Source: an uncultured Chroococcidiopsis sp. | GTDB lineage: Bacteria > Cyanobacteriota > Cyanobacteriia > Cyanobacteriales > Chroococcidiopsidaceae | Reading direction: 5' to 3' | Assembly: GCA_964248365.1 (NCBI GenBank) | Contig: CAXTYC010000074.1 | Location: 1 to 8,616, forward strand | DNA: 8,616 nucleotides | Part shown: positions 3,001-8,616 of the stretch, piece by piece | Numbering within the stretch: position 1 is the first letter of the stretch | How the letters are laid out: every line of letters starts with the position of its first letter | Program-made: the position numbers

Positions 3001-6000
3001 TTGCTTCTGTTGAAGAAGTAAACAAACCCCTTGTATCAAGTGGCCTAGAAGATTTGACAGAAATCTTAGATATTCTTCAAAGGCTGATAGGCGCGTCATT
3101 TATTGACAATCCTCTAATGACGCTTGAGCTTGCGAAGCTTATTCCACAGATTCTCATGAAACAGGGAATTCGAGTACAAAGTTACCAATCTAGTGACGCA
3201 AAACACAATGAGCGCGAGTATTTTGAATTTGAGCCAAGTATTGACTCTTCTACTAAAGACTATGTAACCCTAACGCCTGCTTTATTGAAGGGCGAAAGGT
3301 TGCTCAGGCGCGGTCGAGTAATTGAGCCAGTAGATGCTAAAGCTGATAATTAGACTTGTGCAATACGTCTATTGAACCGCGATCGCCTGATTTTAAGGAA
3401 ACAGGGGAAAGGTACCTTACTTTCTTTTCTCTGTTGGAGTTTTTACTTTCATCAATAAAAAATTACAAAAATTAAGCAATATGAGTACATTGGTTACAGA
3501 AATAGTTGGGTTTGATCTGGGGCATGGTGAAACAGCTGTGGCTAAGGCGAAAGTGGACAGTATAGAAACTCCACAAATGCTTGAGATCAATAATAAAAAA
3601 GTTCAAATCACCGCTATAGGTTGGCATCCCGAACTGGGCATTCTCGTCGGCGAACAAGCGTTAATATATGCGGGTGTTACACAGTTGCAAATTGGTTTTA
3701 AACAAAAACCAAATCCAGATCCACATTACAAGCAGACAATCCGCAATTTTGTTGCAACTTCTTACCATCTTTTAAAAGAAAGCAGACAGATTGAAACTGG
3801 AAAAAATGCCAGCCACTTTTACGTTGGTTGTCCTTCAGGATGGTCAATCAGCGAACGAGAAGAATACCAAAAGCTACTCAAAGAAGCCGATATTGATTTA
3901 GTAAGCGTCGTACCAGAGTCGCGGGCTGCGTTAATGCAAGCTAAGGAAGCGGGAAAGCTTGACTATGACGAAATCAAATCAGCCGTCCTGCTGATTGACA
4001 TTGGTTCTTCGACCACAGATTTTACCCTCGTCAAGAGCTTGTCCGAATTCCCACTCGATTTCGGGCGTAACGCTTTGGGAGCATCGCTGATTGACAAGTT
4101 GATTCTCGCCCGAACTGTGGCAAATCACGAGCAAAGAACCTTACTAGAGAAAGTTTTTGCCCAACATCCGCACCACAAGCTACGTTGCGAACTCCAATGT
4201 CGCAAAGCTAAAGAAGACTACTTTTCTAATGAACTGTTGTATAGCAACTCTCAATCATTTGCACGCGGTTTTGAGTGTATCAGCCCACAGCTTTTCTTTA
4301 TCCCGCAAGTCAACAAAGCAATTATGGAAGAGATTTTGAACCAAAAATTGCCCCAACTGGAAGACAAAAGTTGGGTTCAAGCTTTTCGGGAAGCCGTAAG
4401 TGAAGCAAAGGAAAAGCTTGCCCTACAAGGCGTTGTGCCGAAAGTAGTGCTGATGACTGGCGGGGCATCTCGTATGCAGTTCACCCGTCAGATTTGCCAA
4501 GAGATCTTTCCCGAATCCGAGCTACGTCCTGATCCCGAACCAGAGCGGTGTATTGCACTAGGTCTAGCGCGTGTAGGACGATGGGAATTACGTGCTGCTG
4601 CTTTTAAACAAGAGGTTAACCTTCTGTGTGACTCAAACAGACTCAAAGCTATCATCGAAACACATATTCCCGCTTTGATCGAGTTGCTTGTAGAGCCTTT
4701 GTCAGCTGGTACGATCGCAAATGTAGTCAGACCTGGTTTGCAAGAGTGGCGAAGCAATCGCATCCGTAGTTGGGCAGATCTTGAAAGCGAACTTGAGCAG
4801 CGGGCAAAGCAGTGGCTCAAAAGCAATCAGGCGCAGCAAATAATTAACAGTAAGTGTGCCACTTGGTTTAATAGCTATATCCAACCTGACTTAGCAGCAG
4901 AAACTGACCCCATTTGTCAAAAGTTCCAAATATCTAAAAGTAGCTTGAGGTTCCAAAGCGATGTTAACCCAGATCTGGTTAACCCAGAGCTATCGATTGG
5001 AGACGATATCCTTACTGCTATAGGGGCTTTAATAGTCAGTTTGCTAATTGCTGGAGGTACAATCGGAAGCATCATCGCTTTATTACTAACTGGACACCTG
5101 ATCTTGCCGATCGCCCTAGTATATGGTGCAGTATTGCTTGGAGAGGGAGTGCGGCTAAATCGGGAAAAGATTGTGGATGCAATCAAGACACAAGTGGATA
5201 TTCCAGGTTGGATTCGTTCTATTTCATTAACAGATAAGACAATTGAAAATATTTGTGATCAAATGCGTCCTGAATTAGAAAAAAGCTTGCAAGAACAAAT
5301 GACACAAAAACGCGAGACTTTTGACGAATTGATTGGGGAAGTAGGGCTTGGGCTGAAAAAAGCCCTAGACGCTAAGGCAGAAGAGGCAATAATTCTCATC
5401 CAATAGGAATTTATAGCAGAACCTACTTCTGTACAAAGGGTTGATTAGACACATTTGTGAACAAATAGATAACTCGTTTAAAGAGCGCCCCTAGTACGGG
5501 CTAAGCCCGTACCCCTACCTACTCCTGCTATAAATAACCGCTTTTTCATGCACCTTCGGTTAGAGGCGCAATTTGCGATCGCTTTGCATAATATTAGAAC
5601 AATGAACTTAGGGCGCGTGTGCAAGCTCTCAAGTTCCCCAACCAATTAGCCTCGCTATACATAAGTTTTGTCCGCTTTGGAAAACCCGATCGCAAGAGTT
5701 TATTTATGACCTCCTCCGAGTTTGAAAAAGCAGCGCTGGATGAACAAGAAATAGAAAAGTTGTGGCAAGCGTTCAAACTGCTTGATGCAGATGGCAACAG
5801 TAGCATTTGTGCCGACGAACTCAGACAGGTGATGCATTCGTTGGGGCATAGTCCAACCGACAAAGAGCTACACGATCTGATCGAAGAAGTAGATATTGAC
5901 TCATCAGGAGGAATCAATTTTGAGGAATTCAAAGCGTTAATGATATCTAAGCATGGCGATCGCCAAAGCCGCCTGAAACTAGCATTTTGCGTCTTTGATG

Positions 6001-8616
6001 AAAATGGAAACGGTCAGATCACCGCTTCGGAAATGCGTAGCGTCATGAGTCAGTTTGGACTGACGGACGAAGAACTAGACGAGATCGTACTCGAAGTCGA
6101 TCACGATGGCGATCGCGCGATCAATTTCGAGGAGTTTTGTCAACTGGTAGTGCATGAGCCAGAGAATACAACGGGTTATAAAGATACACTCATTTTCTCT
6201 GCCAATTCGCCTCCTGCGATCGCACCACCTAATACAACTACGGCAACCGACGGTGATTGTTGCGTCACCCCAAACCACACAGCGGGGGAAGCGCTTTCCG
6301 ATCTAGCTCCCGACATGACGCAGTTAACCCAACAGCTCTTACAACAATCTGGGAGCGAAAAAAAGTGTGGTACATCTCGCCTACAGATGCAAATCGGGCT
6401 GTTCCGTCTGATTCAAGGAGCAGCTTACCGTTGCTTCCGCGAGAGTTTTTCTGCCAATCACGAAACTCACTTGCGCGTGAAAAACTTGCCCTACCGAATC
6501 AGTGATTTTGTGCCGTTTGTAAAATGTGCGATCGATCTGTATAAGCAGTTAGGTATAGTCGAAGCAGCCTGCCACCCAGTATTGGATGCTGTTGTTACCT
6601 CAATTGTGAATGAGTATGCCCGACTAGAAGAGCGGATCAAGAAGTGGGAAACTGTAGAAAAAACCCCCCAGATGTTGGCAACACACAAAGCGATCTTGTC
6701 GGCGCGTAGTAAATGTGCAACCGTTAAGGAAAAGTTCACGGCGGGAGTTGAATTTGCCATCACGATCAAGAAGCAGCGTCTGAGCTTGCGTGACATAGCC
6801 TCTGGTGTGCTTGCTCTCAACGAACTTAATCGTTTGAGAAAGATGGATTTGCATGAGGAACTGACGAAGCCACGCGCCAATTCATCCGAGGAAAATCCCA
6901 AAGAATACCTTCAGCAGTGGAACCGTGTCATCATTAGGGATGCTTTAGAGGAAGTCGATGGTGCGATGATGCCAGTAGCTTATTGGTATGAGGAGTTCAT
7001 GCCAAAGCTGCTAGCTGCGTTCAGTGTCAGCACAGCGGCAGATATTGGGAGCAACACCGTACCTAATGAAGTGGATTTAGACCAGTGGTATAAGTCGGCG
7101 TGGGAGGCGGGGGAGTTTGACCGCTTTGGGGCAGATGTTGCTACGTGCTTTCCCACCTGCACTCCAAAACAGAAGCTGATGCTCAAGCAGGCATGGAATC
7201 TCACACACTCTTATCTTAATGGAGTGCAAAAACGACGCGAACGTGTGGAGTGTGGGCGTGAATCAGGAGCGCTTTCACAGTATGTTGCCTTCGTTGATGT
7301 GTATCTAGGTCGAAGTGATATCAAGAACTCCCAGATGCGCGTGAGCTATCCTTACTACATAGGTCCTGCGGTGTGGCGTTTCCTCCACACCAGTGCTGAG
7401 ATTATATGTACAAAGCCCTATGAGCAACAGATTGCTCTGGTTGCGATCGTCAAGGAATTCTTCAAACAGTTTGCCACTCTATATCCCTGCCCCTATTGCC
7501 GTCATCACCTCAACTTATATGTTATCCCGAATCGTGAGGTAGAGATGTACCCAGTGGAATATCTATTGCTTGGGCGTGATGCACACCTAATCGATTTTGA
7601 GGTGTCACTGGATGCAAAACTATCTGCTCTGGTCGATGGTTCTTCTCTACGCTTATTCTTTTGGAAGCTACACAACACCGTCTCGTCCTCCATTAGTCGC
7701 TCGGAGCAGTGGTATCGCCAGGATGAGAAACCGTTCTACACTTCTCGCTATTGGCCAAGCCTTGATGCTGAATTGGCACGAGCCAAAATACTTAAACAGG
7801 CAAGCATTGCTACCGATTTTCTCTACCGTCTCTATGAGGTGCATAGAACTACATCTCGGCTTGCCGCCGCCAGAACAGTATTACAAAAGCTAATGGGAAA
7901 AGGCGAGCGCGAAGGCATCCAAGAAGTGTGTCTAGCTGCACAAAATTACATAAAAGATTTAGATGAGGCTGTCCTTAACGGTCAATTCTTACAGGAAGCC
8001 TACCACTTTGACCCAGATTTGGTAGATAAAGCGCCCTACTTCACCTCCCAAGAGGAGGAATATGCCCGCAGCGGTATATTCATAGAAACGGCTCTCATCG
8101 AGAGGTTATCTTATAGGGTTTCCGTTTAATCGTTCAGCGTTTAGCTATTAGACGTTTCCAAAAATTAAGGTGACAGCCTCTATAAAAGATAGCGTATACG
8201 TAGTTTTAGCAGAGATACATTTAGCGCAAAAAAAATAAGTTTCTGGAAAATGGCGACAAAAAATACTGCCAGCCCTATTTGAGTTATCTGTTGTGTCTCT
8301 TGAGTTATCAGAAATTGTTTGAGGGCTGGCAGTATTTTTCAAGCTATACCCTCCCACGCCGTCAACTCCAGATCTCTCATTCACAACCAGTCAACTCAAT
8401 ACACGGTCAAACTTATTTTTTCAAGCCTTCGTCTACCCTAAAGAGGGCTGGCTTTAATTTATGGAGAATTCTATTGGCAACAGATGCCATAAGAGTTGCT
8501 CGTCGTTATATTTTTTGGATGTCGGCAAAACTCGTAATACCATTTCCGAATAAATTTGCACTAATACCAATTCTCCAAAATATAGCAACAGATGGCAAAA
8601 TAATATTTAACGAGCC

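Follow-up and report, generated by a model that had tools for sequence, protein, structure and literature searches.

Cellular Erv oxidases are known from oxidising compartments. Passages of PMC10598087 place them mainly in mitochondria and already list Erv1/Alr in the cyanobacterial Nostocales and Oscillatoriophycideae. Many viral members of the family lack the shuttle disulfide and hold the FAD-proximal one only, according to sections of PMC3509050. EF-hands joined to a redox enzyme are found in the calredoxin of Chlamydomonas, where four of them are fused to a Ca2+-dependent thiol-disulfide enzyme (excerpts of PMC4911631), and in NOX5 of Cylindrospermum stagnale (csNOX5), a cyanobacterial flavoenzyme activated about five-fold by 1 mM CaCl2 (excerpts of PMC7317449). 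In Nostoc, only two Ca2+-binding proteins have been analysed, as stated in a passage of PMC13578307. The protein considered here, termed EF-Erv, joins a calmodulin-like Ca2+ sensor to a flavin enzyme domain of the disulfide-forming type; it is encoded in a window of 8,616 nucleotides, the whole stretch of Chroococcidiopsis DNA that was analysed.

A calmodulin-like module fused to an Erv/ALR domain

The reading frame is open from GTG 5619 to position 8129 of the forward strand (836 codons without a stop), on which all features below lie. The genome-wide survey's note had taken the full 836 residues as the protein; ATG 5706 is probably the true start, giving an 807-aa product (5706..8129), because the top database protein has 807 aa, close relatives have 801–807 aa and one relative (L001) has no upstream start. 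Residues are counted here from ATG 5706, and the note's numbering equals ours plus 29. The fusion of calmodulin-like EF-hands with an Erv/ALR domain, as the note proposed, is real: the frame is open throughout and both Pfam families are found on the whole protein. The genome has one copy of the gene, and dN/dS is below 1 for each of its regions, a sign of purifying selection. Nothing in the sequence resembles a signal peptide or a membrane segment (hydropathy peak 1.47, N-terminus 0.12), which supports the cytoplasmic location of the earlier reading.

The calmodulin-like module (residues 10–150, 5733..6155; net charge −21), delimited by Pfam and alignments, has EF-hand_7 matches over two stretches, the best at 46–108 in the note's numbering (E 6.9e-29). 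Its identity to calmodulin was previously put at 46%; a recount by eye on the first alignment gives about 47% (67 of 143 columns). The Ca2+ loops of the query appear intact, a reading supported by the ligand positions 1, 3, 5 and 12: all four loops (5784–5819, 5892–5927, 5997–6032 and 6099–6134) carry D1, D/N3, D/N/S5 and E12, and 76 of the 82 aligned sequences keep these ligands in each of their four loops. A stricter PROSITE-like pattern is passed by the query's loops 3 and 4 alone. The module has a median dN/dS of 0.15, and 68 of 80 genome loci encode a full-length protein with four loops. Between it and the core runs a variable linker, about 65 residues long and rich in Pro, Thr and Ser (residues 151–218, 6156..6359). 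No part of the protein is less conserved: identity to the query is 32% here, with a median dN/dS of 0.41.

The Erv/ALR-type domain (residues 545–685, 7338..7760) is recognised by Pfam, by PDB sequence matches and by alignment, and is followed by a family-specific C-terminal extension defined by alignment (residues 686–807, 7761..8129). The domain had been said to escape the Pfam table; a scan of the whole protein finds Evr1_Alr (PF04777) above the curated cut-off (34.9 bits against 27.6, E 2.1e-8; 584–635 in the note's numbering, profile 2–50 of 93), and residues 201–836 of that numbering scanned alone give 35.8 bits and E 1.1e-8. Databases already label the family with PF04777, which is precomputed for all 120 homologues among the matches listed. 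Nor is this half a domain, as had been cautioned: of six relatives scanned with Pfam, five have the Erv match and three of these five align over profile 2–78 or 2–82 of 93, and W653, H656 and N657 of the helix-4 W..HN motif (7662–7676), located past an insertion of about 35 residues within the bundle, are the same in all 82 close sequences; the domain is thus complete. Among solved structures, Erv1, Erv2 and ALR are matched in sequence with E values down to 1.6e-4.

The key residues of the domain follow one another in the order R545, W557, H561, C595/C598, H601, the insertion, W653, H656, N657, R665, W669 and Y678. The CPYC seen earlier at 624–627 corresponds to residues 595–598 (7488–7499) and provides the CxxC of the domain. 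The Erv hallmarks defined in parts of PMC3616962, here R545 (the basic residue before helix 1), W557, H561, C595, C598, H601, H656 and N657, are each present in 82 of 82 close sequences; the same hallmarks occur in 36–45 of 44–45 distant rows, and the site residues in all 57 bacterial-type representatives. Two hallmark residues differ. Leu602 replaces the Phe that follows CxxC-xx-His in 79 of 82 sequences, a conservative change; the other 3 have Phe, as do 7 of 43 distant rows. At the place of the second helix-4 Asn, all 82 sequences carry Ser660; Asn is found there in 17 of 44 distant rows. The KxxF/Y pair, a basic and an aromatic residue expected after helix 4, may be R665 and W669, spaced one residue wider and kept in all 82, or K675 and Y678, where Lys occurs in 75 of 82 close rows and is lost in distant ones. 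Only C595 and C598 are kept across close and distant rows, with no conserved shuttle cysteine pair; C289, C485 and C742 are found in 77–81 of 82 close rows but in only 3–20 of 38–43 distant rows. This region is the most constrained part of the protein (median dN/dS 0.07), and its conserved hallmarks support, in agreement with the note, a putative Erv-type FAD pocket with a CxxC pair.

The middle module and its basic segment

Between linker and Erv domain lies a family-specific middle module of about 330 residues (219–544, 6360..7337), probably helical and conserved (median dN/dS 0.11), with no match in Pfam, NCBIfam or the PDB. ESM Atlas returned no usable match for residues 220–545; P0136 scored only 0.81 there, to an Erv cluster. 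The module is common to EF-less relatives, to giant-virus relatives and, in shortened form, to secreted-looking ones, and was found without an Erv domain only in fragment-like proteins. G238, Y241, R242, W427, Y428, K509 and E512 are near-invariant in it. Its basic motif QKRRER (residues 508–513, 7227..7244), seen in the alignment, is present in 82 of 82 close sequences, and K509, R511, E512 and R513 are the majority residues in distant ones. An origin by internal duplication, as a pseudo-Erv domain, found no support in sequence: six profile self-comparisons gave probabilities of at most 2.5%, that of the middle against the Erv region at most 0.4%. Among the 17 members scanned at E up to 5, none matched a Pfam family of that kind, and PDB searches with alignments A2 (from which rows L012 and L013 were left out), A4 and A5 yielded short Erv matches and noise only.

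Within the module, residues 325–360 (6678..6785) form a basic segment that is a candidate docking helix for the calmodulin-like module. Its conservation is strong in proteins with intact loops, and it changes where the loops decay: net charge is 0 to +6 in all 36 rows outside a clade with decayed EF-hands and −1 to −12 in all 21 rows inside it. Residues 328–363 are the sole separator of the two groups among 92 stretches compared, and with EF decay the charge at 325–360 shifts by 9.4, where 78 other stretches average 0.3 (sd 1.7). This correlation between charge and EF state rests on one branch, amounts to 1 independent pair and has no statistical support, and rows with 0–2 intact loops outside the clade stay basic.

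Family, neighbourhood and candidate function

EF-Erv proteins constitute a large Erv subfamily that is apparently unstudied, as a literature search found no study devoted to them. The EF-decayed clade comprises 21 of 57 representatives, in which no EF loop is intact and every Erv residue is kept (12 scored site residues in 21 of 21). EF-less forms also exist, other branches having Met-Gly starts or hydrophobic leaders in place of the EF N-terminus, and a giant-virus member (L045) belongs to the family; no viral copy of the cyanobacterial type was found in 30 candidate stretches. Among 78 prokaryote loci there is no complete form with a short N-terminus, and the module is therefore retained even when decayed. 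Longer fused forms number 0 among 2352 candidates, a weak result since relatives of 1482–1484 aa are listed. One family tree was built from 29 of the 68 available rows. The gene occurs in 28 of 400 other Cyanobacteriota genomes, 5 of the 28 with fragments only. Besides the query's own genome, 1 of 6 from its genus and 1 of 24 from its taxonomic family have the gene. No other of the 82 sequences diverges as far as the query, which shows 41 changes over 432 conserved columns (median 7) and has 17 cysteines against a median of 8. Measured against L001, its dN/dS is raised, at about 0.15–0.34 outside the linker and about 0.15 in the Erv region.

The idea that EF-Erv shares an operon with the two genes upstream, one Hsp70-like and one of 312 aa, was rejected: of 6 other loci examined, 5 have this pair side by side and none has the EF-Erv gene, and neither of the two is present at any of 116 EF-Erv loci. 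Partner genes conserved beyond one genus or close kin were found neither in 37 loci nor in 80, and the neighbourhood therefore suggests no substrate. A defence system was likewise set aside, with no PADLOC match for three proteins including EF-Erv. The contig also carries IS4 remnants. Scans for promoters and terminators returned chance levels (5 against 4.7 and 5 against 3.1). In four RNA libraries, contigs of relatives, mostly less than 95% alike, cover 20–26 of 30 bins, which is no proof that this gene is transcribed as DNA may be present.

We lean slightly to the view that the protein is a soluble, cytoplasmic, Ca2+-regulated FAD thiol oxidase, its flavin binding, oxidase activity and control by Ca2+ all being inferred from sequence. 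By the precedent of the Erv family, FAD would lie beside C595 and C598, a dithiol substrate would reduce the C595–C598 disulfide, and electrons would pass via FAD to O2, yielding H2O2. The substrate, perhaps a thioredoxin-like protein or a small thiol, would attack the CxxC directly, since there is no conserved shuttle pair, and the large middle module may select it. In the weakest step, a rise in Ca2+ would cause the acidic module to clamp the basic segment and alter access to the site; the effect is taken as activation by analogy with calredoxin and NOX5. The survey's calcium-switched thiol oxidase thus survives in part: the Erv-type site and the intact loops speak for it, but switching is only plausible, because the EF-decayed clade keeps every Erv residue and EF-less forms exist. 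Both groups are natural controls.

The same observations would fit an Erv thiol oxidase whose rate is independent of Ca2+, in which the EF module would bind Ca2+ to target the enzyme, to engage a partner or as a buffer: the decayed clade keeps the core in full, a variable linker parts it from the module, and the exchange of the N-terminus for Met-Gly starts or leaders in other branches suggests a targeting role. We regard this as unlikely in view of the loops kept in most close sequences, the basic segment that changes where they decay and the retention of the module even when decayed. A Ca2+-triggered generator of H2O2 for signalling or defence, burning small thiols such as glutathione and writing no specific protein disulfides, has a rather slim chance; it would account for the missing shuttle pair, the absence of a conserved partner gene and the patchy distribution, with csNOX5 as a functional precedent and mimivirus R596, which oxidises DTT and not reduced thioredoxin or RNase A (sections of PMC3509050), as a parallel, yet the PADLOC result gives it no help and the conserved middle module by the site would suggest a macromolecular partner.

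Slim also, and marginally more so, is the prospect that the flavin/CxxC site is not linked to O2, relaying electrons to another acceptor or sensing redox state on behalf of some activity in the middle module. The two altered FAD contacts, the insertion in the bundle and the near-invariant residues of a module with no known match all suit it; the strong constraint on the Erv region and the near-absence of the module without an Erv domain do not. That the family is functional and this copy is decaying after horizontal arrival is very improbable: the divergence of the query, the IS4 remnants, the rarity in the taxonomic family and the genomes with fragments only are set against an intact frame, four loops, a full set of site residues, low dN/dS in the Erv region and intact relatives, 84–89% identical, that have this divergence in common with it.

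If the Ca2+-regulated thiol oxidase is the true reading, cyanobacteria could oxidise cytoplasmic thiols or release H2O2 on a calcium signal, and EF-Erv would be a candidate addition to their few known Ca2+ effectors. A wider proposal, doubtful but possible, is that these proteins form an unrecognised branch of large cytoplasmic Erv oxidases under signal control, in which the bacterial calmodulin module would clamp the 325–360 helix and a Ca2+ pulse would gate disulfide writing and H2O2 release; in eukaryote-like forms the core would be acyl-anchored at its N-terminus or secreted, the branch would extend to giant viruses, and the bacterial gene would come from a eukaryote. It would then be the oxidising counterpart of calredoxin and, in the cytoplasm of cyanobacteria, a direct Ca2+-to-thiol off-switch.

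Comparison with known enzymes

With Erv1, ALR and Erv2 (PF04777; PDB 4e0h, 2hj3, 1jr8, 1oqc), EF-Erv has in common the helix-1 Trp and His, the CxxC with its His, the helix-4 His-Asn and the basic residue before helix 1. In contrast to these enzymes of about 110–190 aa, it is 807 aa long, has the bundle insertion, the Phe-to-Leu and Asn-to-Ser changes and the EF-hand module, and lacks conserved shuttle cysteines and an export signal. Viral Erv enzymes such as mimivirus R596 and baculovirus Ac92 likewise add large helical parts to an Erv core; none of those described in sections of PMC3509050 has a Ca2+ module, and in PDB searches their extra domains have no sequence match to EF-Erv. QSOX (thioredoxin, pseudo-Erv and Erv domains; parts of PMC3616962) is also multi-domain, with a helical region upstream of its Erv domain; EF-Erv differs by having no thioredoxin domain match and neither a C-terminal nor any further conserved CxxC, and the match to QSOX structure 3lli is marginal (E 5.4), covering the Erv helices alone.

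The survey had seen in the protein a new link between calcium and redox control in cyanobacteria, which is too strong a claim because csNOX5 is a Ca2+-activated cyanobacterial oxidase and Erv1/Alr was already listed in the phylum. As far as described in excerpts of PMC7317449, csNOX5 produces reactive oxygen on Ca2+ binding via an internal docking region; it is a membrane heme enzyme that draws on NADPH and yields superoxide, with a catalytic domain unrelated to Erv. The closest working model is calredoxin, whose catalytic domain, according to excerpts of PMC4911631, is a thioredoxin that reduces peroxiredoxin, whereas EF-Erv has no thioredoxin match and its Erv domain is predicted to be a flavoprotein that oxidises thiols.

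Gene, genomic setting and domain anatomy

The EF-Erv gene, in which a calmodulin-like EF-hand module (residues 10-150) is joined through a linker (151-218) and a middle region (219-544) to an Erv/ALR domain (545-685) and a C-terminus (686-807), lies at 5706-8129 on the plus strand of an 8.6-kb contig and is single-copy in a 5.58 Mb genome that is 99.97% complete. The genome-wide survey's note had described an 836-residue protein; the frame 5619-8129 is indeed open throughout, but the likely start is the ATG at 5706, giving 807 residues, because the best database match (identical across the region searched) has 807 and close relatives have 801-807. 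Residues are numbered here from this ATG (29 lower than in that note). The note had also stated that Pfam misses the second domain and that only the first half of the Erv profile aligns; a scan of the whole protein detects both the EF-hands and Evr1_Alr, the latter above its cut-off, and the half-length match is explained by a ~35-residue insertion ahead of helix 4, which the Pfam alignment spans in three relatives (loci L001, L010 and L011).

Judged by alignment, the Erv domain is complete. R545, W557, H561, C595, C598, H601, H656 and N657 are each conserved in 82/82 close sequences and present in all 57 bacterial-type representatives; FAD contacts of the family are listed in a passage of PMC3616962. 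Counting against completeness, the Phe that follows the CxxC motif in the Erv family is Leu here, Ser replaces the second helix-4 Asn, and it is ambiguous which residues make up the basic/aromatic pair beyond helix 4. C595 and C598 are the sole cysteines conserved family-wide, which leaves the family with no general shuttle pair; according to PMC3509050, many viral Erv enzymes lack one as well. An Erv fold is predicted, Erv1 of yeast and of Arabidopsis giving the top PDB sequence matches (E 1.6e-4 to 2e-4). The calcium module is likewise intact: with a loop scored good when ligands occupy positions 1, 3, 5 and 12, four good loops are found in 76 of the 82 sequences and three in the remaining six; under a stricter pattern just two of the query's loops qualify. 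Hydropathy reveals neither leader nor membrane segment, which makes a cytoplasmic location probable. Comparison at this level establishes anatomy and conservation, together with a likely location.

The GC content of the gene is 0.48 (genome 0.43), and three GCGATCGC sites fall within its 2.4 kb, against 1.0 per kb genome-wide. Among the genome loci compared, no neighbour is common beyond close kin. Upstream, a 312-residue protein without Pfam match (2415-3353, plus strand) and a 641-residue Hsp70/actin-like protein (3481-5406, plus strand; HSP70 E 2.9e-4, BeeR E 6.6e-5, below cut-off) form a small conserved two-gene unit: the Hsp70-like gene is present in 6/200 other genomes of the phylum, adjacent to the 312-residue gene in five of these six loci. 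Between the Hsp70-like and EF-Erv genes lies a perfect 9-bp inverted repeat (5494-5512), possibly a small dispersed repeat; blastn gives as many as 8 short matches within the genome for the bin 5401-5600.

Distribution, relatives and origin

The fusion is real, conserved and labelled in databases. A search with the core gave 545 matches among 8000 candidates, the best 120 at 66-100% identity and some named 'ERV1/ALR-related protein', 'thiol oxidase' or 'EF-hand domain-containing protein'. EF-Erv occurs in 28/400 other genomes of the phylum (23 intact, 5 as fragments only); within the genus it is present in 1/6 other genomes and within the family in 1/24. Of 148 genome matches, the top 80, in which Nostoc and Microcoleus predominate, comprise 68 full-length proteins with four EF loops, 7 full-length with 0-3, and 5 cut, broken or overlooked by the motif test. 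Four genomes of one genus (G005, G188, G252, G336) hold a broken second copy alongside the intact one, and in 15/80 loci, from Microcoleus/Tychonema, a 219-residue gene without Pfam match lies ~150 bp away (1513-2172 in L078, 4054-4725 in L022). Alphaproteobacteria also carry the family, which is found on one of 72,556 plasmids, an alphaproteobacterial one. On a Gemmobacter plasmid (L295, 1-6734) a copy with decayed EF-hands ends a same-strand run of glgX and genes for an AGE epimerase, a DJ-1/PfpI protein and a sugar nucleotidyltransferase, an arrangement that the four other alphaproteobacterial loci listed do not show.

The middle region is a module specific to the family. A profile of the core matched 278 clusters at E <= 0.001; the 150 listed include bacterial-type forms with decayed EF loops; an EF-hand-bearing Chlorokybus protein (P0129); nine forms of 618-673 residues without EF match; Asn-rich forms of 729-1484 residues, one (P0185) encoded on a giant-virus MAG contig; and forms that have a hydrophobic leader and a shortened middle. 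Six of the nine start with Met-Gly and two more have it inside their first six residues; of these eight, six carry Ser at position 6, the N-myristoylation pattern. These nine and the leader-bearing forms are probably eukaryotic, a view supported by the lack of any complete short-N-terminus form among 78 prokaryote loci, by a class I phosphodiesterase gene adjoining one such copy and by the eukaryote source of P0224. P0224 is joined to a WDR55-like propeller, which may be a gene-model fusion. The giant-virus copy (L045, 7452-12295) immediately follows the gene of an ABC1-like kinase, in the same orientation.

In a careful tree of 29 rows, with four virus-like rows chosen as the root, a single clade (97/96) unites 14 bacterial-type rows. 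It is sister to Chlorokybus and P0133 (joint support 93/96) and is placed among EF-less forms; a quick tree of 68 rows gave the same picture. Grouping Chlorokybus with filamentous cyanobacteria was rejected (p-AU 0.003), and a tree that unites every labelled cyanobacterium in a single clade gave a borderline result (p-AU 0.045). With the root assumed, transfer from a eukaryote to bacteria is plausible.

Candidate switch, proposed mechanism and rivals

In 57 representatives (<80% identity, drawn from 148 full-length proteins), residues 325-360 carry a net charge of -1 to -12 in all 21 rows of the EF-decayed clade, which has no intact EF loop, and of 0 to +6 in the other 36; the contrast represents one branch, and an independent-pairs test has no power. 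Among 92 windows, only that of residues 328-363, with a shift of 9.4 charges, separates the two groups (78 non-overlapping windows: mean shift 0.3 charges, sd 1.7). Outside that clade, rows with 0-2 intact EF loops keep the segment basic. Its basic residues flank Phe344 and Phe350, as in calmodulin targets. Residues 325-360 are a candidate switch, offered as a lead for mutagenesis.

EF-Erv is read, with slightly better than even confidence, as a Ca2+-regulated oxidase: Ca2+ would bind the calmodulin-like module, the loaded module would then engage the core, and C595/C598 would oxidise a dithiol substrate and pass electrons through FAD to O2. FAD, activity, substrate, and Ca2+ control with its direction are what we infer here. 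An oxidase independent of Ca2+ is unlikely: in its favour, the EF-decayed clade retains the eight Erv residues; against it, four good EF loops prevail among close sequences. A role as H2O2 generator is improbable, and a non-O2 electron relay or sensor ranks just behind it.

That the copy in the window is decaying is very improbable. It is the most diverged of the 82 sequences and has 17 cysteines, where the median is 8; proteins P0003 and P0004 share both traits, and this lineage, with 16-17 cysteines, has roughly double the family's number and shows more changes at conserved columns than any other. IS4 remnants are present on the contig (a transposase in two pieces, 229-648 and 763-1287, minus strand; contigs C12, C56 and C86 hold stretches 65-69% similar to them). 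The copy is read as a fast lineage rather than a decaying gene because selection is still purifying: across 31 coding sequences (120-222 usable pairs per region), median dN/dS is 0.15 in the module, 0.41 in the linker, 0.11 in the middle, 0.07 in Erv and 0.16 in the C-terminus.

Comparison with known systems

The EF-hand/Erv fusion is apparently unstudied, no study having been found in searches of an open-access library. Cyanobacterial and alphaproteobacterial holders of PF04777 are listed, with no architecture, in a passage of PMC10598087. PMC7016017 lists numerous fusions of calmodulin-like domains of bacteria to redox domains; 'Erv' is absent from its text, and five Erv terms from one supplement. 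The genome-wide survey's note held that a Ca2+-regulated bacterial oxidase of this kind would be a new calcium-redox link in cyanobacteria; that claim is too strong, since csNOX5 of the cyanobacterium Cylindrospermum stagnale is already a Ca2+-gated redox enzyme (passages of PMC7317449). Calredoxin, the Chlamydomonas EF-hand/thioredoxin protein, is another existing Ca2+-gated redox enzyme (PMC4911631), and EF-Erv probably works like an oxidising calredoxin.
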